Positions 4,851-62,755 of a stretch of 64,000 nucleotides of DNA are shown piece after piece (the first letter of the stretch is position 1; each line of letters opens with the position of its first letter). The stretch lies in NCBI GenBank assembly GCA_965218295.1, contig CBDCKN010000015.1:416001-480000 (forward strand), given 5' to 3'. A model generated the notes under the pieces. It did not search any database. It saw only the letters and a program-made list of their open reading frames with translations, and was not told the DNA's origin. This stretch comes from Longimicrobiales bacterium. GTDB lineage: Bacteria; Gemmatimonadota; Gemmatimonadetes; Longimicrobiales; Gaopeijiaceae. The position numbers were made by a program, and so were the translations under genes.

Positions 4851-6228
4851 GAGCTAGGATCAAAGGGTGTGTAAAAAGAGAGGCGACGTACCTTTCCGCT
4901 GAGTAATAACCAGCGAACTCCGGGTGACAGCCCGGGGGAAAGGAACGACGCCTCGTGAGGAAGAATACGGTGGGACCCGAGGGTGAGTCCAGGACGCCCG
5001 TGTGGGAAGTTCTGGAAGAAGTGGTTCGGGAGAAGGCGCAGGAGTTCATTCAACAGATCTTGGAGGAGGAAGTCACGGAGTTGCTAGGGCGAGAGAAGTC
5101 AGAGCGCAGGAGGGTGGTGGACGCGACCGAGGGCTACCGCAACGGATACGGCAAGCCGAGGCGGCTGGCGATGAGCTCGGGCACGATCACACTCCGACGC
5201 CCTCGAGTTCGAGGCCTTGAGGAGCGGTTCGAGAGCCGCGTGCTGCCGTTGTTCGCGAGGCGGACGAAGGAGCTGGGCGCTCTGCTTCCGGAGCTGTATC
5301 TGCACGGACTGGCGGAGGGAGACTTCGAGTTGGCGATGCGGGGCCTGCTGGGCGAGGGGGCACCGCTGTCGAAGTCTTCGATTCGGCGGCTGCGGGCGGG
5401 ATGGACGGCGGAGTTCGAGGAATGGAGCCAGCGTCGCCTGGAGGGTCGTGAGGTCGTCTACGTGTGGGCGGACGGGATCTATGTGAAGGCAGGGCTGGAG
5501 CGGGACAAAGCGGCGCTGCTGGTGGTGCTGGGTGCCATGCGAGACGGGACGAAAGAGGTGTTGGCCCTGAGAGCGGGCTACCGAGAGTCGGTCGAGTCCT
5601 GGTCCGAGGTGTTGCGGGACCTGAAGGCACGCGGCATCGAGGCGCCCCGGCTTCTGATGGCGGACGGTAACGCTGCGATCTGGGGCGCAGTACGGCAGGT
5701 ATGGCCTGAGGCGGGTGAGCAACGGTGCTGGAACCACAAGATGAGGAACGTGCTGGACCGACTACCTCAGCGGGAGCAGGGCGAGGCGAAGGATCTTCTC
5801 CGGGCCGTGGTCTACGCACCGAGCCGGGCCGAGGCCCTGAAGGCCCGCGAGGTGTTCGCCCGACGCTATAGGCCGTGGTATCCGAAAGCAGTGGACGTAC
5901 TCGAGGACGACTGGGAGCGGATGGTAGCGTTCTACGACTTCCCCGAGGACCACTGGAAGCATCTACGCACGACGAACGTGGTCGAGAGCCCGTTCGCCGC
6001 GGTACGGCTCAGGACGACAGCAGCGAAGCGGTTCAAGCGGGTCGAGAGCGCTACGGCGCTAATCTGGAAGTTGCTCTTGGTGGCCGAGAAGCGGTTCCGA
6101 AGGCTCGACGCTCCTCACCTCCTCAAGGACGTATTTGAAGGAAGAAAGTTCGAAGACGGAAAGCCCGTCTCACACCAACAGCGGAAGAACGCCGCCTAAT
6201 ACGTTTACACACCTATTGACCCAACCTC
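4851..6228 (+). mobile_element. IS256-family insertion sequence, copy 1 (no target duplication)
   Basis: Imperfect 25-bp terminal IRs GAGCTAGGATCAAAGGGTGTGTAAA / GAGGTTGGGTCAATAGGTGTGTAAA. The flanks (gtgtggtg / cttctgac) do not match. Confidence 0.92.
4955..6199 (+). CDS. IS256-family (Mutator-like) DDE transposase
   Basis: YRNGY, VWADGIYVK (D), MADG (D), QRCWNHK (CxxH), RTTNVVES (E). Confidence 0.95.
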   Translation: MRKNTVGPEGESRTPVWEVLEEVVREKAQEFIQQILEEEVTELLGREKSERRRVVDATEGYRNGYGKPRRLAMSSGTITLRRPRVRGLEERFESRVLPLFARRTKELGALLPELYLHGLAEGDFELAMRGLLGEGAPLSKSSIRRLRAGWTAEFEEWSQRRLEGREVVYVWADGIYVKAGLERDKAALLVVLGAMRDGTKEVLALRAGYRESVESWSEVLRDLKARGIEAPRLLMADGNAAIWGAVRQVWPEAGEQRCWNHKMRNVLDRLPQREQGEAKDLLRAVVYAPSRAEALKAREVFARRYRPWYPKAVDVLEDDWERMVAFYDFPEDHWKHLRTTNVVESPFAAVRLRTTAAKRFKRVESATALIWKLLLVAEKRFRRLDAPHLLKDVFEGRKFEDGKPVSHQQRKNAA

Positions 6229-6368: not shown

Positions 6369-7376
6369 TTAGAGAGCAATCTCCTGTGTAGTGAGGGATG
6401 GGGTGGGAGGATTGATCCAGACGGCCTCCGGGAGTGGTTTAGGCTTCGGCTCACCGGAGACGAAGCGCTCGGGATGAGCGGCCCATGCCTCACGGAGCAC
6501 GGCCTTCCTGCAGGCGATGATCCGATCGGCGTGACCGAAGTGGACCTGTTCGGGGGTCAGCATCGAGATGCCGCCATGGCGGTGCTCGGCATTATACCAA
6601 CGGAAGAACGAGCGACAGAAGGTCTTGGCTTGCCCCTGATCCCCGAACCGGCCGGGAAACGAGGGATGGTACTTCAAGGTCTTGAACTGAGCCTCGGAGA
6701 ACGGATTGTCATCCGAGACCTGGGGTCGGCCCAACGAGCGGGTCACGCCGAGATCGGCGAGTAGTTGAGCCGTGCATTGGCTCGTCATCGGAGCCCCTCG
6801 ATCGGAATGCAGGGTCAGGAGGTGGGGCTGGACGCCATGCTTCAAGCAACTCTGCTGGATCAGCCGGCTGGCCAGGGCAGAGTTCTCCCGATCCGCCACC
6901 ATCCATCCCACGACGTAGCGGCTGAAGATGTCCAGGATCACGTAGAGGTAGAAGTAACTCCACTTCTTCGGCCCCAGCAGCCGGGTGATATCCCAGGACC
7001 AGACCTGGTTCGGGCCCCTCGCCATCAACTCGGGCTTCTGGTATTTGGGATGACTCCGCTGCGCTCGACGCTCCTGAACCGGCACCTGGGAAGCCAGAAC
7101 GCGATACATCGTACGCTCGCTGCACAGGTAGACGTCCTCGTCGAGCAGCGTCGCCACCACCTCGGCTGGGGACCGGTCCACGAACCGCTCCGAACACAGG
7201 GTGTCGAAAATCTTGTCCCGCTCCCTCTCACTTAAGGCCCGGGCGGGGGTCGGGCGGGGCTGCTGATGCCCGGTCGATGCACTCCGACGACGGTAGAACG
7301 TGGCTCGCGGCACCCTGAGCGCATCGCACGCGGGCTTCACCCCTACGTGCTTGGCTAGCTCCTGGGTCGCCTTCAT
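6369..7376 (-). CDS. IS3-family transposase OrfB (rve integrase core)
   Basis: WSWDIT (D), HSDRG (D), DNPFSEAQFKTLK (E), YNAEHRH. Confidence 0.93.
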   Translation of the reverse strand: MKATQELAKHVGVKPACDALRVPRATFYRRRSASTGHQQPRPTPARALSERERDKIFDTLCSERFVDRSPAEVVATLLDEDVYLCSERTMYRVLASQVPVQERRAQRSHPKYQKPELMARGPNQVWSWDITRLLGPKKWSYFYLYVILDIFSRYVVGWMVADRENSALASRLIQQSCLKHGVQPHLLTLHSDRGAPMTSQCTAQLLADLGVTRSLGRPQVSDDNPFSEAQFKTLKYHPSFPGRFGDQGQAKTFCRSFFRWYNAEHRHGGISMLTPEQVHFGHADRIIACRKAVLREAWAAHPERFVSGEPKPKPLPEAVWINPPTPSLTTQEIAL

Positions 7377-53964: not shown

Positions 53965-54796
53965 GGATGTGTTGCAACTTTCAAAAATCAGCAAGAGAGC
54001 GACTGGTTGGGTCGACCAGGCTCCGTCTTATGCGGCCACTTCGAACAGCTTGTTGATGAACTGAATCTGTTGCCGAACATCCGAACCGCTCACCCACCTC
54101 GCCTGACCCTTCCGGATCATGTGAATTGCCTCATAATCCTTGGATCGTTCGCCGTGCCGCGTGAAATTCACGAAAGCCCTGCTTGGCCTTCACGCGTCGT
54201 TTGATCGCTCGCTGATCCTGCTCCAGGATGTTGTTCAAGTATTGGATCGGCCGGTGACGGCAACGGTGTCGCAGGATTCCTTCCTGCTTCACTCCTGAAA
54301 TTGCCGCGCCATAGAGGCGTGCTTGGTCCGTATAGATAACCCGGGGCTGCCGATGCGACGGATTCGTCAGCGCCTGGCGGAACAGGCGTTTGGCCGTAAC
54401 GGCATCGCGCAACCTCGAGAGCACGAAGTCGGTCGTGGCGCCGGTGGAATCGATGGCTCGGTAGAGGTAGCACCAACGGCCCTTGACACGAACGTAGGTC
54501 TCATCGACCCGCCAGGACCTGTTGGTTGGCTTGAGATGACGGCGCAGCCGCGCCTCCAGTTCGGGACCGTAGCGCTGGACCCGGCGCCAGATTGTCGTGT
54601 GGTCCGCCTCCAGGCCGCGCTCGCTGAACAGCTCTTCGACATCGCGGAACGAGAGCGAGTACCGAAGGTACCAGCGCACGGCGCAAAGAATCGGCTCGGG
54701 CTCGGTTTGTCGCCACTTGAAGATCGCCGGTCGGATTGTCTTTTTCATGATCTCTTCAGGTTACCAGCCGCTGTCCGCCAAAGTTGCAACACAACC
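53965..54796 (-). mobile_element. IS6-family element (transposase 54131-54748, C-terminus probably frameshifted)
   Basis: IRs GGATGTGTTGCAACTTT / GGTTGTGTTGCAACTTT. AVRWYLRYSLS, WRVDETYV, YLYRAID, YLNNILEQD. No TSD. Confidence 0.9.
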
Positions 54797-55127: not shown

Positions 55128-56373
55128 GTGAGGAAGAATACGGTGGGACCCGAGGGTGAGTCCAGGACGCCCGTGTGGGAAGTTCTGGAAGAAGTGGTTC
55201 GGGAGAAGGCGCAGGAGTTCATTCAACAGATCTTGGAGGAGGAAGTCACGGAGTTGCTAGGGCGAGAGAAGTCAGAGCGCAGGAAGGGTGGTGGACGCGA
55301 CCGAGGGCTACCGCAACGGATACGGCAAGCCGAGGCGGTTGGCGATGAGCTCGGGCACGATCACACTCCGACGCCCTCGGGTTCGGGGCGTCGAGGAGCG
55401 GTTCGAGAGTCGGGTGCTGCCGTTGTTCGCGAGGCGGACGAAGGAGCTGGGCGCTCTGCTTCCGGAGCTGTATCTGCACGGACTGGCAGAGGGAGACTTC
55501 GAGCTGGCGATGCGGGGACTGCTAGGCGAGGGGGCACCGCTGTCGAAGTCTTCGATTCGGAGACTGCGGGCGGGATGGACGGCGGAGTTCGAGGAATGGA
55601 GCCAGCGTCGCCTGGAGGGCCGTGAGGTCGTCTACGTATGGGCGGACGGGATCTACGTGAAGGCAGGGCTCGAGCGGGACAAGGCGGCGCTACTGGTGGT
55701 GCTGGGCGCGATGCGAGACGGGACGAAGGAGGTGTTGGCCCTGAGATCGGGCTACCGAGAGTCGGTCGAGTCCTGGTCGGAGGTGTTGCGGGATCTGAAG
55801 GCACGCGGCATCGAGGCGCCCCGGCTTTTGATGGCGGACGGCAACGCGGCGATCTGGGGCGCAGTACGGCAGGTATGGCCTGAGGCGGGCGAGCAACGGT
55901 GCTGGAACCACAAGATGAGGAACGTGCTGGACCGACTACCTCAGCGGGAGCAGGGCGAGGCGAAGGATCTTCTCCGGGCCGTGGTCTACGCACCGAGCCG
56001 GGCCGAGGCCCTGAAGGCCCGCGAGGTGTTCGCCCGACGCTATAGGCCGTGGTATCCGAAAGCAGTGGACGTACTCGAGGACGACTGGGAGCGGATGGTA
56101 GCGTTCTACGACTTCCCCGAGGACCACTGGAAGCATCTACGCACGACGAACGTGGTCGAGAGCCCGTTCGCCGCGGTACGGCTCAGGACGACAGCAGCGA
56201 AGCGGTTCAAGCGGGTCGAGAGCGCTACGGCGCTAATCTGGAAGTTGCTCTTGGTGGCTGAGAAGCGGTTCCGAAGGCTCGACGCTCCTCACCTCCTCAA
56301 GGACGTATTTGAAGGAAGAAAGTTCGAAGACGGAAAGCCCGTCTCACACCAACAGCGGAAGAACGCCGCCTAA
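55128..56373 (+). pseudogene. IS256 transposase with +1 frameshift
   Basis: Extra A near 55284 (cgcaggaagggtg vs cgcaggagggtg in copies 1 and 2). Confidence 0.85.
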
Positions 56374-56472
56374 TACGTTTAGGGGATTATACGGTTAACT
56401 TGACGGCGTTCTGCTCGTTTTCTCGCCGGGGGGAGGCTGTTATGGGAGTTCTTCAGTGGCGCGTGTCTGCGC

Positions 56473-56760
56473 TCAGATTCCTTCGTCGTCTGACATGCCG
56501 ATGTAACTGCGGACAGCCTTGTCGAGTTCCCGCGCGATCCGGTAGGCCGCTGGGACGGAGACGTAGTAGGAAACGAAACCGGGGTCGCGATTTTCTTCGG
56601 GGTCATATCCAAAAGTCACACGAAGGATACCACTCCGGTTTCGTGTCTCTCCCGCCACCTCCACGCCTGTCAGATGAAGAACTCGCCGAGATGTTCGGGG
56701 ATCTGCCAACCCTTCTAAGGGATTCGAGTCAGGGTCGGGCACGGGGGGAAGATTTTGCAT
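56473..56760 (-). CDS. Hypothetical passenger protein (95 aa); a plus-strand ORF 56442-56762 overlaps it
   Basis: Globular-looking composition; starts 2 nt after the stop of 56763-57005. Confidence 0.45.
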   Translation of the reverse strand: MQNLPPVPDPDSNPLEGLADPRTSRRVLHLTGVEVAGETRNRSGILRVTFGYDPEENRDPGFVSYYVSVPAAYRIARELDKAVRSYIGMSDDEGI

Positions 56761-56762
56761 GA

Positions 56763-57005
56763 CTAGATTTCGTCGGTGGGTTCGGTGCCTAGGTAGTCTT
56801 CTCTTACGTCCGCCGGAAGCGTCAGGAACAACGCAACCGATTCCCGACCCTCCCCCTCACAGACGGAAAGGGAAACTAAAACTGCATTCGCGTGGGGGTC
56901 CGTATGAATGGCCCACCCTGACACCCGAAATGGACGCTCGGATGATCGAGATGGGTAATCGGCTTCGTCGTAAATTGCTGGAGGATGTGCGGGGACCCGA
57001 GGCAT
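56763..57005 (-). CDS. Hypothetical passenger protein (80 aa); a plus-strand ORF 56759-57007 overlaps it
   Basis: Weak SD sequence; coupled to the downstream ORF. Confidence 0.4.
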   Translation of the reverse strand: MPRVPAHPPAIYDEADYPSRSSERPFRVSGWAIHTDPHANAVLVSLSVCEGEGRESVALFLTLPADVREDYLGTEPTDEI

Positions 57006-57254
57006 GAGCTCAACCTACCCCGGATTGGCGCTTGCGACAATCTCTCGCCCGCCGTATCGTGCGGACGTCCACTATACGCAGGAACCTCAGGTCGGGTTAC
57101 CTGCTGAATACAACAGCCTGATGCTTGGCCGGGGTAGCTCCCCGCGCCTGGGGCAAATAGGCAGGGCTTCCGCATTTTTCCTGCGTGATAGTGGACAACG
57201 GCCCGGCGCCACGTCCGGGTCCCACGTCCACAGTCACGGCGGGAGGCCCCAGTC

Positions 57255-57689
57255 ATGATCCGCTTCGTTTTGATCCTTGCCCTGTTCGCCCCTTTGTTCC
57301 CCTTGCCCCTAAGCGCCCAGACACGCGCGGCGGAAGCCCTGACGAACATTCACGGCGGCGGGAACCGTACGGAGACCCGCCAGCGTTTCGAGTACGTCCT
57401 GCCACGGCTGGCACGAACGTGCTCGGACACCGAGACCGTGATGAACGTCGCCGATGGCTTGGTGTACATGAACGAGCTGATCCAGGAGGCCGGGCTCGGC
57501 ACGGAGGAGGGGGGTTTGCTCGGCTCCACGAACGCGGTCTACAGCCTGACGATGCAGGTTGGGTTGGGAGCTGAGGACGCCGTGACGTGTTCCAAACTTT
57601 GGTCCATGTACGTCACGCTCCGTCAGGGTGGCTTCGCCAAAGAGAAATCGATCAGCGACCTCCTGGCGATCGTAGAGCTCTTCCGCTGA
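57255..57689 (+). CDS. Secreted hypothetical passenger protein
   Basis: GGAGG RBS, signal peptide MIRFVLILALFAPLFPLPLSA, two Cys. Confidence 0.7.
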   Translation: MIRFVLILALFAPLFPLPLSAQTRAAEALTNIHGGGNRTETRQRFEYVLPRLARTCSDTETVMNVADGLVYMNELIQEAGLGTEEGGLLGSTNAVYSLTMQVGLGAEDAVTCSKLWSMYVTLRQGGFAKEKSISDLLAIVELFR

Positions 57690-57752
57690 TCCTTGACACG
57701 TGCAGCAATGCCTGGGTATGCTTGGGCAGGTCTTAAAATCGGGAGTGCACGA

Positions 57753-57914
57753 ATGACCGAGAAGCGGCGGGACAAGGTCGAAGTGCCGGACGTGCGGGCC
57801 GTGAATCCGCGCTACAAGGGCGCCAAGTTGAGCGACGTGGTGCGGGCGCTCATGCGCCCGAAGGACCCCAAGGTCCGGGAAGCTCTGGAACAGAGAGAAA
57901 AGAACACGAAATAG
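57753..57914 (+). CDS. Small basic hypothetical protein (53 aa)
   Basis: GGGAG RBS and a TTGACA-N18-TATGCT promoter (57693-57722). Confidence 0.6.
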   Translation: MTEKRRDKVEVPDVRAVNPRYKGAKLSDVVRALMRPKDPKVREALEQREKNTK

Positions 57915-57929
57915 GGGGGGAGGGGGGAG

Positions 57930-58002
57930 AGGCGCCGCCCAGAATCGAACCGGGACTTCACGCTTTGGCAGGGCGCGTGGCTTACCATTTGCCTACGGCG
58001 CC
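57930..58002 (-). tRNA. Non-canonical tRNA-like gene (GCC in a 9-nt loop, discriminator U)
   Basis: GGCGCCG-TA-GGC-AAATGGTAA-GCC-A-CGCGC-CCTGCCAAA-GCGTG-AAGT-CCCGG-TTCGATT-CTGGG-CGGCGCC-T. All four arms pair. Confidence 0.85.
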
Positions 58003-58086
58003 TGTTTCCTCCCCCTTCCTACCCTATAGAGGTTGGAGGCAACCCCCCCCCGCTATGTCAATAGCGGATGGTCTGACTGGACCACA

Positions 58087-58165
58087 CAAAATAAGTGCCC
58101 AGAACGGTTACCCCCCGCTCTGGGCACTCTCGCATTAGTGTAGCTGCGCGTTTCCGTAGGGTCAA
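58087..58165 (-). promoter_or_regulatory. Sigma70 promoter followed immediately by a terminator-like hairpin
   Basis: TTGACC (58165-58160)-N17-TACACT (58142-58137). Stem AGTGCCCAGA/TCTGGGCACT (58128-58094), then TATTTTG. Confidence 0.6.
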
Positions 58166-58189
58166 TCGTCGGGCCGAAGCCCGGCCCGG

Positions 58190-59128
58190 TCAATCCGCTA
58201 TCAGATCCTTGTACATGAGCCGACGCCCGACCAGCCCGGCGACCACGTGCTCCATTTGCTCCAGCGTGTCTAGTTCCCGGATGTTGTGGCGACCGGCGAA
58301 CTCGGCCACGTACCGATTGAGGTGCTTGGCCGATAGCTTGTGGTAGACGCCCTTGTGGGCGCGCTTGAGCATCGACCAGAAAGACTCGACCCCGTTCGTG
58401 TGGGCGATGTTCCGGACCCATTCCCCGACGCCATGCTGGACGCTCTCGCGGTTCGGTAGGCCATAGTAGGCGCCGCCCTCGTCCGTGTATATCTTGGCCC
58501 CGGGCTTCGAGTGTTCCGCGACGAATCCCTGAACGGTCTCGCGCCGTGAGTCGGGGAGAACCCGGGCAGCAACCTTGCCGGTCGGGCGGTCCTTCATTCC
58601 GACGACAGCCGTCTTGCCAGCGGGACCGCGTCCGACCCTGAGCTTCTTCAAGGCGTGCTTGTTCTTCTCCAGCCCGCCCATGTAGGTTTCGTCGACCTCG
58701 ACCGGGCCATCGAACGTGGCCGAAACATCGGCGAACGCTTCCCGGATGCGGTGGAGCATGAACCACGCAGTCGGCTGGCGGACATCAAGGTCGCGGCCGA
58801 GCTTCATGCTGGAAACGCCTTTGAGGTTCGTCATTTCCAGGTAGATCGCCCAGCCCCATTTCCGGAGCGGCAGCTTGCTATCCTCCATCGCCGTGCCGGT
58901 CTTGAGCGAGAAGTACTGGCGGCAATCGCGGCACCGGTAAGGCATCGGCTTCCCGGTCCCCACGCGGTAGGCGTTCAGGCTCCCGCACTTCATGCAGGCG
59001 ATCTCGCCCCCCGGCCAAAGCCAGGACTCGAACCAACGGGTCGCGCTTGCCTCGGCCGAGAACATATCGGCGATCTCCATCATGGAAACCCCGCTGCGGT
59101 AGTGCTTTCCAGGTCCGCTCTGGGCCAT
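58190..59128 (-). CDS. IS1595-family DDE transposase
   Basis: Zn ribbon CMKC/CRDC, HTH, VEVDETY, IYTDE, HTNGVESFWSMLKR, YVAEFAGRHN. Confidence 0.95.
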   Translation of the reverse strand: MAQSGPGKHYRSGVSMMEIADMFSAEASATRWFESWLWPGGEIACMKCGSLNAYRVGTGKPMPYRCRDCRQYFSLKTGTAMEDSKLPLRKWGWAIYLEMTNLKGVSSMKLGRDLDVRQPTAWFMLHRIREAFADVSATFDGPVEVDETYMGGLEKNKHALKKLRVGRGPAGKTAVVGMKDRPTGKVAARVLPDSRRETVQGFVAEHSKPGAKIYTDEGGAYYGLPNRESVQHGVGEWVRNIAHTNGVESFWSMLKRAHKGVYHKLSAKHLNRYVAEFAGRHNIRELDTLEQMEHVVAGLVGRRLMYKDLIAD

Positions 59129-59256
59129 GCTATCCTCCTATCGTGTAACGTGTTACCGTACTAGGAAGATAGTCTATCGTCAGGACCCCGTCAAGTCACG
59201 CGTATAATCCCCTACGTTTACACACCTATTGACCCAACCTCATCAGGAGAAGCACG

Positions 59257-60195
59257 ATGCAAGTCATCTTGGCACAACCGCGCGGTTTTTGCGCCGGTGT
59301 CGAGCGCGCCATCGAAATCGTCGAAACGGCCCTGCATCAATACGGCCCCCCGGTTTACGTGCGCCACGAAATCGTCCATAACCGGCGCGTCGTGGAGGAT
59401 CTGAAGGCGAAGGGCGTGCGTTTCGTCGACCAAGTCGAGCAGATTCCCAGCGGGGCCCTCACGGTATTCAGTGCCCACGGCGTGTCGGCAAAGGTCGAGC
59501 AGGACGCATCGGTGCGCTGCCTGCGGACGCTGGATGCTACTTGCCCGCTGGTCTCCAAGGTACACATCGAGGGGCGCCGCTACGCCGCCAAGGGCTACAC
59601 CATCATTCTGATCGGTCATGAAAACCATCCGGAGGTCGAGGGCACCGTGGGTCAGATCCCGGGGCGGGTACTGCTGGTGGGCGACGTGGCCGATGTGGAA
59701 ATGCTCCAGGTCCGCGACCCCGACAGAGTTGCCTATATCACACAGACGACTCTGTCGGTCGACGACACCCGGGACGTGATCTCAGCCCTGCGCAATCGAT
59801 TCCCCAAGATTGTCGGCCCGGGGGTCAAGGACATTTGCTACGCGACCCAGAACCGTCAGGCCGCCGTAAGAACGCTCGCCTCCTTCGTGGACCTGGTGTT
59901 CGTGGTCGGTGCCCAGAACAGCTCCAATTCAAACCGCTTGTGCGAGGTCAGTAACGACAGCGGCGTGCCGAGCTATCTGATCGAGGATCCGTCGGCGCTC
60001 GATCCGGTTTGGCTCCACGGCAAGAAGAGCGTCGGCATTACCGCCGGTGCCTCGACCCCCGAGGAACTGGTGCAGGACCTCATCGCGAAGATGCGGGAAT
60101 ACGTTGACGTCGAACTCTCGACGATGGATGGCATCGTCGAGAACGTTCGCTTCAGCCTGCTTCCAAAACTGAGCCAAGCCGCCGTTGCCCAATAG
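59257..60195 (+). CDS. ispH: 4-hydroxy-3-methylbut-2-enyl diphosphate reductase
   Basis: [54 protein letters not shown]. Confidence 0.97.
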
Positions 60196-60237: not shown

Positions 60238-60457
60238 GAGATTGGGTCAATAGGTGTGTAAACGTATTAGGCGGCGTTCTTCCGCTGTTGGTGTGAGACG
60301 GGCTTTCCGTCTTCGAACTTTCTTCCTTCAAATACGTCCTTGAGGAGGTGAGGAGCGTCGAGCCTTCGGAACCGCTTCTCAGCCACCAAGAGCAACTTCC
60401 AGATTAGCGCCGTAGCGCTCTCGACCCGCTTTTTTACACACCCTTTGATCCTAGCTC
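60238..60457 (-). mobile_element. 220-bp non-autonomous IS256 derivative (MITE)
   Basis: Both IRs plus only the transposase 3' end. 8-bp TSD CGGCCGAG at 60230-60237 and 60458-60465. Confidence 0.93.
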
Positions 60458-60720: not shown

Positions 60721-60873
60721 ATGGAACTCGCCAAAGCTACCGCGCTTTCGCACCTGACCCGCGACGCTCTCCGCCGAATCTTCTTCGACAAGCTTGACGT
60801 GGTCTTCCTCGGATTCATCCTCTTCGCACTCATCCTCGGAGGCCGCCGTCATGCCAGGGCCTGTTACCGCTAA
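60721..60873 (+). pseudogene. Possible internally deleted IS5-family transposase remnant
   Basis: [21 protein letters not shown] resembles IS5-family transposase C-termini; the DDE core is absent. Confidence 0.4.
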
Positions 60874-61904
60874 TGTGCTCCGATGGGATATCAGACAGCG
60901 ATCTCGCCTACCAGGCAGAACTCCTGCAGCGCGTATCCCGCACCTTCGCTCTCACGATTCCACAGCTTCCAACCGGGCTCCGCGATGTGGTGGAAAACGC
61001 CTACCTCCTGTGCCGGATTACCGACACGATCGAAGACGAGCCCGCGCTGTCCGCCAGGCAGAAGCGGGTGTTCTGGGAACGGTTCATCGACATTGTCGCT
61101 GGTCGGGACACCGTGGAGCCGTTCGCGCGCGAGCTCGGTGCCGGGCTGTCGTCGTCGACCCCCACTAGTGAACATGACCTGATCGCCAACACTGCCCGCG
61201 TAATCCGCCTCACACGCGGGTTTGAGCCCGCGCAACGCGAGGCGCTCGCACGCTGCGTGCAAATCATGGCCCGAGGCATGGCGGACTTTCAGTTGCAGGC
61301 AACTCCTGTTGTCGGCCTAGCCGACCTAGCTCACCTCGACCGCTACTGCTACTACGTCGCTGGCGTGGTAGGCGAGATGCTTACCGAGCTGTTCTGCGAT
61401 TATTCCGCGGAAATCAACGCGCATCGGGAGGAGTTGCTCAGGTTATCCGTGTCGTTCGGCCAAGGGCTGCAGATGACCAACATCCTCAAGGATGTATGGG
61501 ACGACTGGCAGCGCGGGGCGTGCTGGTTGCCGCGGGACGTCTTCCTGGATGCCGGTTTCGACCTGCGCTCCCTGTCAGCGAACCGGAACGATCCGCGCTT
61601 CGCTAATGGACTTTTCACCCTGGTGGGCATCGCCCACGGTCACCTGGCAAATGCGCTGCGCTACATCCATATCATCCCGGCCCACGAAACCGGCATCCGC
61701 CGACACTGCCTGTGGGCGTTGGGCATGGCCGTGCTAACGCTACGCCGCATTCACGCGACGCCGGCGTTCCAAAGTGGCCGGCAGGTCAAGATCTCGCGGC
61801 GCAGCGTGCGGACAGTCACCGTCGTCACCAGCAGCCTGGTCCGCTCGAACCTGGCGCTAACGCTGCTGTTCAGGGCACTCACTCGCGGACTGCCACGTGG
61901 GTGA
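60873..61904 (+). CDS. Squalene/phytoene synthase family, single-enzyme squalene synthase-like
   Basis: [46 protein letters not shown]. Confidence 0.88.
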
Positions 61905-61929: not shown

Positions 61930-62755
61930 GGTTCTGGTGCAGACAGCCAACGGGGATTGGCGATAATGAGATATGGCGCATCGCAAAACTGAAAGGAATC
62001 CTCTATTTGCCGGACGTTGGTTCGAAGACGACATCATTCTCCTCTGCCTTCGCTGGTATTTTCGCTTCAAACTGAGTTACCGGGACCTGGTCGCGATCTT
62101 AGGTGAGCGGGGTTTATCGATTTCGCACACCACGATCTTGCGTTGGGTCATTCGCTATGCCGAAATCTGCGAAAAGCGGTGGAGCCGATTCGAGCGGCCG
62201 GTGGGTGGAAGTTGGCGAGTTGATGAAACGTTCATCAAGGTGCGAGGCCAGGTGATGTACCTGTATCGAGCCGTGGATGGACAAGGCAACACCGTAGAGT
62301 TCTTTCTCAGTCGAACACGCGGCATTGCGGCGGCGAAGGCCTTCTTTCGCAAGGCACTGAAGCATCATCGGGAGCCACACAGCATCACCCTGGATGGCCA
62401 CCAGCCGAGCCATAGCGCCCTGCGACGCATGGGGATGAACGGGGAGTTCAACTTCCGGGGCCCGAACCCGATGAGGATTCGTTGCTGTCAATACCTGAAC
62501 AACCTTGTGGAGCAGGACCCGCCGGGTGAAGGGGCGATTGCAACCGATGTTGGGATTCAAGACATTCTACAATGCGCGACGCGTCATTATCGGCATTGAG
62601 CTGGCGCAGAAGATTCACAAACGCCAGTTCGCAATTCCGATCCCATGGCAATCGAATCCCGCGGTGATCTGGCGTCACGTCATGGCAGCATAGGCCGCAT
62701 CGCCGCGGTGCACTCCTGGTCTTATCGTCCCGATAATCCTATCGGCACCAGAACC
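61930..62755 (+). mobile_element. Second, distinct IS6-family element; transposase 61973-62693 frameshifted near 62520
   Basis: IRs GGTTCTGGTGC at both ends. LRWYFRFKLSYRDL, WRVDETF, YLNNLVEQD; the C-terminus RRVKGRLQPMLGFK is in another frame. Confidence 0.88.

Follow-up and report, generated by a model that had tools for sequence, protein, structure and literature searches.

A passenger-carrying transposon of the IS1595 family is recently inserted in the window, the whole stretch of 64,000 nucleotides that was analysed, where it spans 2,831 bp (56382-59212). Its cargo includes a tRNA gene whose body, by sequence comparison, is of the Cys type and whose anticodon arm has been rebuilt. As the best explanation of this gene, though one that we place somewhat short of an even chance, we propose a chargeable tRNA that would mistranslate at a low rate by inserting Cys at Gly or Ala codons. 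Work published in 2017 placed irregular tRNAs near mobile DNA but gave them neither a defined carrier nor a function. Here the carrier is delimited and recently moved, empty target sites serve as a control, and one tRNA scaffold is available in five natural versions that differ mainly in the anticodon arm, so that the choice between mistranslator, decoy and relic can be tested with a few synthetic genes.

Boundaries and transposase of the element

The inverted-repeat arms (56380-56413 and 59181-59214, 34 nt each) are 85% complementary, and the terminal repeats at the cargo end (56382..56406) and the transposase end (59188..59212) match at 22 of 25 bases. On the left (56374..56381) and on the right (59213..59220) the element is flanked by the duplication TACGTTTA, identical between the sides at 8/8 positions. 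The left duplication falls within the right-hand end of an IS256-type element, whose transposase (55288-56373) was recognized by Pfam (PF00872), and 36 of the 37 copies of this IS256-type end in the same genome carry a single, insert-free TACGTTTA. This confirmed the preliminary description of a 2831-bp unit delimited by 25-bp repeats and an exact 8-bp target duplication. Terminal inverted repeats and an 8-bp direct repeat are the rule in the IS1595 family, and both were found here. The family member ISApl4 likewise shows an 8-bp direct repeat (PMC12561309).

The minus strand (59128-58190) encodes an intact transposase of 312 aa with an N-terminal zinc ribbon and an ISXO2/IS1595-type DDE domain, as in the IS1595 family; PF12762 and PF12760 scored 128.7 and 28.2 bits, respectively, both above cut-off, and the family assignment made earlier was thereby supported. 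Four of its Cys residues are invariant across 133/133 relatives. Promoter-like sites are more frequent in the element than in shuffled sequence (4 versus 0.7 ± 0.9), and that of the transposase (59194-59166) has its -35 box inside the terminal repeat.

The tRNA gene and its counterparts in related elements

The tRNA gene lies on the minus strand (58002-57930), was called by ARAGORN as Gly-GCC and scored 49.4 bits against Rfam RF00005 (cut-off 29, E 9e-9), in agreement with the earlier claim of a tRNA-like gene inside the element. It folds with a 7-bp acceptor stem, a 5-bp T stem and a variable region of 4-5 nt, and its anticodon loop comprises 9 nt in the lowest-energy fold, or 7 nt with the anticodon GCC (G34-C35-C36, A36 of GCA being lost) closed by a C-A mismatch. 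A 343-nt contig of a public run, possibly from the source sample (depth 2), is identical over 57915-58257, so that an assembly artefact is a less likely source of the odd loop. Identity with the host tRNA-Cys amounts to 21/25 in the acceptor 5' strand and D arm and 23/25 in the T arm and acceptor 3' strand, and to 15/24 in the anticodon arm and variable region. The nearest isotype was Cys (37 versus 14 for Gly), by a method that was correct for 25/40 host controls. Gly-type acceptor stems carry C2-G71 and G3-C70. As the pairs here are G2-C71 and C3-G70, the body scores as Cys and the host Gly-GCC tRNA differs, the ARAGORN label was rejected. The acceptor, D and T arms and U73 are thus those of a canonical tRNA-Cys, but GCA at 34-36 of a 7-nt loop is replaced by GCC or lies in a 9-nt loop; U73 and GCA are the main identity elements of CysRS according to the available text of PMC5389517 and PMC8762117.

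Inverted repeats and folding revealed that a purine-rich 5' leader (58003..58027, minus strand) pairs with the 3' trailer (57911..57929, minus strand), in which CCA is absent, to form a closing stem covering N73 and the trailer. At -29.1 kcal/mol this stem is the strongest among the 48 tRNA loci of the genome; closing stems of -29.1, -28.2 and -27.2 kcal/mol were obtained with differing sequences. The host genome already has tRNA-Cys, three Gly tRNAs and three Ala tRNAs, and the earlier suggestion that a host tRNA is replaced is therefore unsupported; a role as a tRNA supplement was rejected on the same ground. In a sibling contig, 253 letters replace the 250 that hold the tRNA.

Of an estimated ~1,500 transposase-matching stretches, 80 were kept. 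Among 78 distinct delimited elements, tRNAs were present in 7 and absent from 71, every cargo tRNA being irregular. Cys-type copies number five: that of the window and those of L001, L120, L200 and L273, although the L200 body is ambiguous by isotype score (Ser 20, Phe 17, Cys 17) and the five are not independent, as L001 and L120 are 87% identical. All five keep U73 and, counting from the 5' stem, a G at 35 and a C at 36; their acceptor (35 pairs in total) and T stems (25 pairs) are intact. GCA is in its normal place in none of them and is shifted by one base in the four copies outside the window; L001, L120 and L200 have 8-nt loops of the form CU-N-GCA-AN, and L273 has a 7-nt loop with C33. 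Only three of five anticodon-stem pairs form in L200, and in none of the five copies do U33, five stem pairs and a clean 7-nt loop occur together. In the window copy the D stem has changed on both sides and the 5-bp anticodon stem has been rebuilt.

Between the window copy and L001, the T arm and acceptor 3' strand are 96% and the acceptor and D arm 84% identical, compared with 43% (four-fold sites of the transposase) and 44-54% (flanks), a contrast that points to constraint. Across copies, acceptor and T arm are conserved at 88-96% and the anticodon arm at 46-57%, no better than the flanks (~50%; four-fold sites 43-50%). We do not claim that the anticodon arm evolves faster than neutral, since the leader (44%) and spacer (66%) of L001 and L120 are equally diverged, perhaps because a tract was swapped. 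Some D- and T-loop bases that the host tRNA-Cys lacks are common to the window copy and L001, an observation that speaks against recent renewal by the host gene.

In three copies the tRNA shares its strand with the transposase, follows the transposase stop by 179-191 nt and faces a convergent small gene; L200 carries it on the opposite strand near the far end, and L273 ~2.8 kb downstream. The carriers are scattered over the transposase tree. The recurrence behind the transposase that had been sought as support for a system was thus found in two elements that have diverged to 62-63% amino-acid identity, with four-fold sites close to saturation, but not in the 71 elements lacking a tRNA, and the concern that the gene might be a one-off decaying copy was not borne out, irregular tRNAs recurring in relatives. 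Other cargo tRNAs have ordinary 7-nt loops and are mismatched too (Ser-like body with UAA, Arg-like body with ACC, weakly Leu-like body with CGC), a pattern to be read with the limit that the isotype of the first tRNA of L057 is not clear-cut.

A shifted-GCA pattern, built from the copies themselves, occurred at five places in 251 genomes of the family, four being these tRNAs, all in IS1595 elements, and one a non-tRNA. A narrow pattern yielded no new Cys-type copy in 400 genomes of the class, and none was found in 56 and in 50 element-rich genomes, the one match in the latter set failing the tRNA scan. A covariance model applied to 68 genomes, with 52 candidates per genome scored and the G246 copy missed, recovered only ordinary tRNA-Cys genes and three known copies. 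Viral contigs gave one match (L221), tRNA-Cys-like with an irregular loop by eye, at a contig end, and a further search gave none.

If the tRNA does mistranslate, it would be transcribed from the promoter at 58165, RNase P and 3' trimming would release it from the stem that closes it, and it would then be supplied with CCA, charged by the host CysRS and used by the ribosome. The window copy would offer U73 and two of the three GCA bases to CysRS and G34-C35-C36 to Gly codons, and in the four other copies GCA is whole but moved by one base, which would present NGC (Ala) to the ribosome. Mature tRNA is predicted to be scarce, its supply being limited by the closing stem and by the convergent promoter in front of the 53-aa gene. 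The mismatch in cargo tRNAs of other elements favours such a function as a class pattern, and there is precedent in a Ser-identity allo-tRNA with a UAA anticodon that mistranslated and killed E. coli (available text of PMC5389517) and in a natural 8-nt-loop tRNA that recodes CUN in yeast mitochondria (available text of PMC3113583). Against it stand the 9-nt lowest-energy loop and lost A36 of the window copy, the anticodon arm kept no better than the flanks, the 71 elements without a tRNA and, in the available text of Mukai et al. (PMC5389517), a transposon-linked allo-tRNA(UAU) group inactive in translation. A target in cis is lacking as well: adaptation of the tRNA to its own transposase was rejected, as the four invariant Cys are ordinary Cys codons in all five carriers and an Ala or Gly codon in none. 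We would offer only as a doubtful generalization that these are 'two-register' tRNAs of IS1595, in which CysRS would read U73 and the displaced GCA (or G34-C35) and the ribosome the shifted triplet, placing Cys at Ala or Gly, with release gated by the leader/trailer stem and the antisense promoter. If true, code reading would be altered in a mobile, switchable and heritable way, and the alteration would travel together with a riboswitch-like leader RNA that serves exported proteins; if naturally charged, a tRNA whose loop is shifted or enlarged would be of further interest for quadruplet decoding.

Loops of 7-9 nt, C33 in L273 and three of five pairs in L200 also count against mistranslation, as they resemble a disabled anticodon no less than a reprogrammed one. 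We consider it rather unlikely that the gene is a non-decoding mimic, selected for its acceptor/T-arm shape, with an anticodon disabled to keep it out of decoding, and serving as a decoy or sink for tRNA-handling enzymes. The strong conservation of acceptor and T arm relative to the anticodon arm, the absence of any clean loop and stem among the five copies, the closing stem over N73 and trailer, and the inactive allo-tRNAs near transposon and toxin-antitoxin genes (available text of PMC5389517) would all suit such a role, whereas the G and C kept at 35-36 in 5/5 copies, the ordinary 7-nt loops of the sister cargo tRNAs and the lack of a recognizable nuclease, toxin or defence gene in the element (Pfam, PHROGs and PADLOC) speak against it. 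Candidate enzymes for a decoy include anticodon nucleases, tRNA-modifying toxins and CysRS. Decay of a captured host tRNA-Cys as a neutral passenger, which the patchy distribution (7/78), the scattered carriers, one G-U in a T stem and the broken anticodon might indicate, is improbable in view of acceptor and T arms kept far above flanks and four-fold sites, stems rebuilt with pairing retained, a closing stem maintained though its sequences differ, and D- and T-loop bases shared with L001 and missing from the host gene.

The 8-nt loops of L001, L120 and L200 also recall a natural +1 frameshift-suppressor tRNA-Cys that, with one extra loop base, would read UGC-N or slip at Cys codons, as SufB2 shifts frame during translocation (available text of bioRxiv 10.1101/2020.12.31.424971). 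This is quite improbable, given that the window copy lacks GCA, that the L273 loop has 7 nt, that the carrier transposases read in frame, and that an unsystematic look at the ORF lists of L001, L120 and L200 revealed no split cargo ORF. Finally, the cloverleaf could be a processing or termination signal (an RNase P cut of the transposase or antisense transcript) or an integration bait at the DNA level; its placement close behind the transposase in three copies fits, but the positions in L200 and L273, the many elements lacking it and the absence of a second element inserted in any of the five copies make this highly improbable.

Leader RNA and small cargo genes

A second, separate cargo unit, consisting of a promoter, a structured RNA and an exported protein, is predicted to act as a translational switch. 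The RNA, designated M2 (about 57067..57226, plus strand), comprises three helices supported by covariation, an alternative 3' hairpin, and a 5' strand pairing with a junction segment. It is preceded by a promoter-like site with a 17-nt spacer (57032..57060, plus strand; by eye, below the scan threshold), and similar sites precede many M2 homologues; in structure, position and pairing it corresponds to a leader, with covarying structure between promoter and ribosome-binding site and alternative folds. M2 (~150 nt) stands before a secreted-protein gene in 24 of 78 elements, and with 42 distinct copies collected it is a riboswitch candidate. It is absent from the parts listed in the preliminary description. 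The window copy matched no Rfam family, including RF02221 (sRNA-Xcc1), and resemblances to RNase P, HDV-like, T-box, SRP or c-di-GMP RNAs found no Rfam support. The best homologues scored 26-28.4 bits against RF02221, under its cut-off of 53, and the four best RF02221 matches in five genomes coincide with M2 copies; M2 is probably a distant, longer relative of sRNA-Xcc1.

Downstream lies the gene of a 144-aa protein (57255..57689, plus strand) with seven relatives at 70-82% and, by eye, a signal-peptide-like N-terminus, so that the secreted protein described earlier holds as one of predicted export; no family was found in Pfam, PHROGs or PADLOC. The slot is interchangeable, with unrelated exported-type proteins in L001 and L120, and this uncatalogued folded RNA likely controls the exported cargo protein.

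A basic protein of 53 aa and of an unnamed family (57753..57914, plus strand; 51 relatives) has its own promoter-like site pointing toward the tRNA (57693..57722, plus strand, 10/12 matches), its stop lying 15 nt from the tRNA 3' end. Pfam, PHROGs and PADLOC gave it no family, and its Atlas matches were unnamed and below 0.9. Its family occurs in 84 of 187 IS1595 loci irrespective of a tRNA; judged by this distribution the ORF is a generic passenger, and a dedicated partnership with the tRNA was rejected, leaving of the earlier proposal the protein itself, supported by its relatives, and the promoter-like site. An RNA-based addiction module fails on the same counts (84/187 loci against 7/78 elements) and for want of a toxin-family match. 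Its sole support was the convergent promoter.

On the minus strand, a promoter-like site (58137..58165, 9/12 matches) stands upstream of the hairpins and the tRNA; 58141-58174 is kept with two differences in the sibling contig, where the next ~250 nt differ. It is followed by the 15-bp terminator-like hairpin of the proposed sRNA (58093..58129; scan and folding) and a small 6-bp hairpin (58050..58067) that has a counterpart, with a compensatory change, at the corresponding position in L001 and L120; the folding z-score of 58040-58170 is -4.9. The promoter and hairpin were thus found as described, but conservation is limited to three elements, the three seeds being the only matches among 188 loci (an analogous hairpin being present only in L001 and L120), and a conserved sRNA, for which Rfam holds no family, was rejected. 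The idea of an RNA-bearing cargo module likewise holds in part: the tRNA recurs, but the set is not a fixed one, the 53-aa gene being independent of the tRNA and the hairpin unit confined to three elements.

From the run of small ORFs at the left end, two on the minus strand survive. The 80-aa ORF (56763..57005) has one convincing relative (58%, E 3e-11) and three weak matches, and promoter-like hexamers 17 nt apart just before its ATG, seen by eye and not in the scan, would make its mRNA leaderless. The 95-aa ORF (56473..56760), starting 2 nt past that stop, has three relatives (44-85% identity) and is probably a real gene. Neither matched PHROGs or PADLOC, nor the 95-aa ORF Pfam. Their third-position GC is also low (0.55-0.58), so that the case for them rests on relatives. 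The plus-strand chain (56400-57258) was rejected: its codon-position bias is weak, its third-position GC of 0.50-0.67 falls short of the 0.83-0.85 seen for the transposase, 53-aa and 144-aa genes, and outside the overlap with the leader RNA 288 loci gave no independent match.

Relation to known elements and irregular tRNAs

Passenger-carrying members of the IS1595 family have reportedly been described as 'transporter IS' (Siguier, Gagnevin and Chandler 2009). The element resembles them in its zinc-ribbon and DDE transposase, ~25-bp inverted repeats, 8-bp AT-rich duplication and passengers placed behind the transposase, and differs in carrying among its passengers an irregular tRNA and a structured leader RNA, neither of which our literature searches found described as an IS1595 passenger.

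Like M2, sRNA-Xcc1 (RF02221) is a structured RNA borne on a mobile element. It measures 87 nt against ~150 nt, M2 having an added hairpin and the 5' pairing strand, and M2 is placed like a 5' leader, whereas the title of the original sRNA-Xcc1 paper (Chen 2011) calls it a trans-acting sRNA. In Xanthomonas cassettes sRNA-Xcc1 lies upstream of a gene, according to the available text of bioRxiv 10.1101/2025.06.18.660453. By this comparison, sRNA-Xcc1 may represent the central part of a leader that acts in cis.

One extra anticodon-loop base alters reading in SufB2, a laboratory mutant, as it may do here. The same is described for yeast mitochondrial tRNA-Thr(UAG) in the available text of PMC3113583; that case is an organellar code change, and here loops of 7-9 nt occur among mobile copies.

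The closest precedents are the allo-tRNAs (Mukai et al. 2017, PMC5389517; review PMC7609411), in which, as here, body and anticodon disagree; the available text of both sources describes some as mistranslating and some as inactive, and proposes a link to transposon genes and toxin-antitoxin systems. The claim that nothing described matches the element stands for IS1595 within our literature searches, but its kind was partly anticipated by these transposable-element-linked tRNAs (PMC5389517). Allo-tRNAs have 8/4 or 9/3 acceptor branches, long variable arms and mostly Ser or Ala identity. The window tRNA lacks that branch and that arm: it is of the Cys type, with a 7/5 branch and a short arm, its GCA is displaced, it has a closing stem, and its carrier is a delimited IS; with the allo-tRNAs it shares the anticodon-body mismatch and the association with mobile DNA, a likeness in working and not membership. 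The selC* tRNA-Cys is, like the window tRNA, an unusual tRNA-Cys with U73, but the available text of PMC5389517 presents it as resembling tRNA-Sec, its variable arm being long and its GCA or UCA standing in the normal register; the window tRNA shows none of these traits.

Insertion site and protein cargo of the element

The element at 56382–59212 is delimited by inverted repeats of 34 nt at 85%, with 22 of the 25 terminal bases matching, and is flanked by an exact duplication of TACGTTTA, confirming the unit bounded by repeats and an 8-bp target duplication proposed in the preliminary description. The insertion point lies in an IS256-type element (PF00872), at its right end, and as 36 of the 37 copies of this end in the genome carry a single TACGTTTA without an insert, the insertion is real and probably recent. 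Only one copy is present in the assembly, along with two divergent relatives on contigs C13 and C3. The transposase (312 aa) is intact, with zinc-ribbon and IS1595 DDE domains above the Pfam cut-offs; the titled transposases closest to it belong to MAGs of Gemmatimonadota. Relatives occur in many phyla, and many of these taxa are sponge-associated. The IS256-type element itself (55288–56399) is represented in the genome by at least 37 nearly identical copies, and another of its ends lies at 60267–60395 on the minus strand, at about 60.3 kb of the window. The neighbourhood (54131–54748, 59257–60195, 60873–61904 and 61973–62599) is IS-dense, with IS6-like ORFs recognized by eye in the surroundings of an ispH/lytB gene (PF02401) and, by eye, a squalene/phytoene-synthase-like ORF.

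Passenger-carrying IS1595 elements are known. Here, the 144-aa protein (57255–57689, +) has seven relatives and no family, and the 53-aa protein (57753–57914, +) is real, with 51 relatives. An iterated profile placed the latter in an unnamed family found in 84 of 187 loci with related transposases and in either orientation, and it was therefore rejected as a partner of the tRNA. In many element loci, this small-ORF family overlaps the transposase 3' end in antisense, about 77 nt before its stop. At the left end of the element, the likelier small genes are minus-strand ORFs of 80 and 95 aa. The promoter-plus-hairpin unit, previously regarded as an sRNA candidate, has analogues only in two other carriers of a Cys-type tRNA, L001 and L120, and is more simply explained as the terminator or the leader of the transcript that includes the tRNA.

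The cargo tRNA and its recurrence in IS1595 elements

The tRNA-like gene reported within the element was recovered by ARAGORN at 58002–57929 (−), with an Rfam score of 49.4 bits. The ARAGORN label, Gly-GCC, was rejected because the body, judged by its sequence, is of the tRNA-Cys type: identity with the host tRNA-Cys is 21/25 in the acceptor/D part and 23/25 in the T/acceptor part, and Cys is the nearest host isotype (37 versus 14), by a wide margin for a method that gave the correct isotype for no more than 25 of the 40 host controls. The anticodon arm and variable region match at 15 of 24 positions. The anticodon stem has been rebuilt and, in the lowest-energy fold, closes a 9-nt loop; an alternative arm with a C-A mismatch gives a 7-nt loop and the anticodon GCC. 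U73 is retained and CCA is unencoded, as in the host tRNA-Cys gene. A public-run contig identical to 57915–58257, with zero differences, argues against an assembly error, although it may derive from the source sample. The stem formed by leader and trailer (−29.1 kcal/mol) is the strongest among 48 tRNA loci of the genome, followed by that of the cargo tRNA in the C13 element. Seventeen host tRNA genes are clustered on one strand of contig C9 (278187–280522).

Recurrence was examined in the 187 loci (82 + 25 + 80), using a cloverleaf descriptor that detected 48 host tRNAs, against 50 by ARAGORN, and gave no hit in 2.1 Mb of shuffled sequence. Ends were definable in 113 loci, corresponding to 78 distinct elements. 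The expectation that tRNA-like genes recur was borne out in part: irregular tRNAs were found in 7 of the 78, three sharing a common slot, but most elements lack a tRNA. A further carrier, L273, was found outside these loci by a search with the 53-aa protein. Five copies are of the Cys type: the window copy, L001 (same genome; duplication only 3/8), L120 (same genus; 8/8), L200 (a metagenome; 8/8), whose body assignment is uncertain and whose anticodon stem has 3 of 5 pairs, and L273 (another genus; inverted repeats 25/25, duplication 8/8). In the window copy, L001 and L120 the tRNA lies 179–191 nt behind the transposase, preceded by two hairpins, enclosed by a closing stem and followed by a convergent small ORF; in L200 and L273 it occupies another position. 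The anticodon loops of L001, L120 and L200 comprise 8 nt, with one base (A, C or U) ahead of GCA, while that of L273 comprises 7 nt with GCA displaced one place 3'. G-C at positions 35–36, numbered from the 5' stem, is common to all five, and none of the 60 acceptor and T-stem pairs is broken. When 251 genomes of the family were searched with a pattern derived from these copies, the only matches were the four known copies and one non-tRNA; a reversed control pattern matched in 6 genomes.

The other tRNAs within IS1595 ends also have anticodons that disagree with their bodies: an unclear body with GCC and a Ser-like body with UAA (L057:5322–5394 and 6994–7092), an Arg-like body with ACC (L029:7959–8033; duplication 3/8) and a weakly Leu-like body with CGC (L076:6321–6417). 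Taking these and the Cys-type copies together, the anticodons would mostly decode Gly or Ala codons. Outside this count, as no ends were found, are an Arg-like body with GCT (L065:5866–5938) and odd tRNAs in L130 (Ser-like long arm) and L215 (long arm, weak Leu/Asp likeness), all near IS1595 transposases. The L200 element also holds a DNA methylase-HNH fusion, and its Cys-type tRNA is followed by another tRNA-like unit (5300–5460, −) in which the D arm is shortened and the loop is of the CCA type. In a viral contig, a gene resembling tRNA-Cys lies at the contig end (L221:2960–3050); its anticodon loop is irregular by eye.

A structured, putative leader RNA, M2

A motif of ~150 nt that the preliminary description did not mention, here termed M2 and located at about 57067–57226 (+), gave 50 matches in 49 of the 187 loci (42 distinct) and occurs in 24 of the 78 distinct elements; all three copies in the window's genome lie inside IS1595 elements. 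In a 34-sequence alignment, from which the structure was itself derived, the three helices are 96% paired, compared with 25–48% in slid controls, and 8 of 17 pairs vary on both sides, which none of 500 shuffles matched. For the variable 5' strand, pairing with the junction segment of the same copy gives −23.7 kcal/mol, versus −12.5 with segments of other copies, and its own segment is the best partner in 24 of 38. The closing-helix 3' strand can pair downstream instead (−12.2 versus −8.5 shuffled). Within 60 nt after at least 19 of the 42 copies comes an ORF whose start, by eye, resembles a signal peptide, these ORFs being mostly unrelated to one another. No Rfam family matched M2. In five genomes, the four best matches of the sRNA-Xcc1 model (26–28 bits; cut-off 53) all fell on M2 copies, and M2 is therefore probably a relative of this mobile-element RNA, differing in its greater length. 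Transfer RNA cargo and M2 co-occur (6/7 versus 18/71; Fisher p 0.003), but this is not read as a functional link, because there is kinship among three of the six and because any feature is commoner in a larger cargo. In L039 (4304–4636), two M2 copies face each other on opposite strands.

Constraint on the cargo tRNA and its possible role

Between the window copy and L001, transposase identity is 63%, with 43% at four-fold sites, and the tRNA flanks (44–54%) and anticodon arm (46%) have diverged likewise, whereas the acceptor/D and T/acceptor parts retain 84% and 96%. Since the two tRNAs also share D- and T-loop bases absent from the host tRNA-Cys, this argues for selection on tRNA shape after capture, the role of the anticodon left aside. 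Neutral decay of the tRNA is a less likely account, to which we give a low probability, and a role as a processing signal, likewise less likely, seems very improbable. L001 and L120 being close kin (87%), about four independent versions of the Cys-type tRNA exist. In L120 (1600–1756; G002:C3), a hairpin immediately upstream of the tRNA leader contains an exact 18-nt copy of the anticodon arm, which may have served as a template for local gene conversion or arisen from it; a smaller related hairpin occupies the same place in the window, at about 58030–58045.

The main CysRS identity elements are U73 and the GCA anticodon, according to PMC5389517 and PMC8762117. Both are retained in four copies, with GCA out of register, and in the window copy U73, G34 and C35 persist and only position 36 is altered. 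Across all cargo tRNAs, the most economical reading is that synthetase marks are retained and the codon read is altered. We tentatively favour, as a fair possibility only, a chargeable tRNA that would misread codons, inferring every step from transcription to decoding; the closing stem and convergent promoter would keep the amount of mature tRNA down. Such an outcome is documented for allo-tRNAs of Ser identity that bear Leu anticodons, which caused mistranslation and were lethal to E. coli (Mukai et al., PMC5389517). No in-cis target for misreading was found, the four invariant transposase cysteines being ordinary in all five carriers. No RNA run was listed among those containing the element, a result that is neutral as to expression. 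A decoy with a disabled anticodon is rather unlikely overall, yet would explain the variable loop sizes as well as or better than a misreading tRNA, and one transposon-linked allo-tRNA group was inactive according to the same paper. A +1 suppressor tRNA, which three copies fit but the window copy and L273 do not, appears improbable.

Among the family features, the 8-bp duplication agrees with that given for ISApl4 in PMC12561309. Irregular tRNAs near transposon genes were already described (PMC5389517; review PMC7609411). In searches of the open-access literature, including the text of the Mukai supplement (figures aside), no account was found of IS1595 elements that carry a tRNA, or of displacement of GCA in tRNAs of the Cys type.
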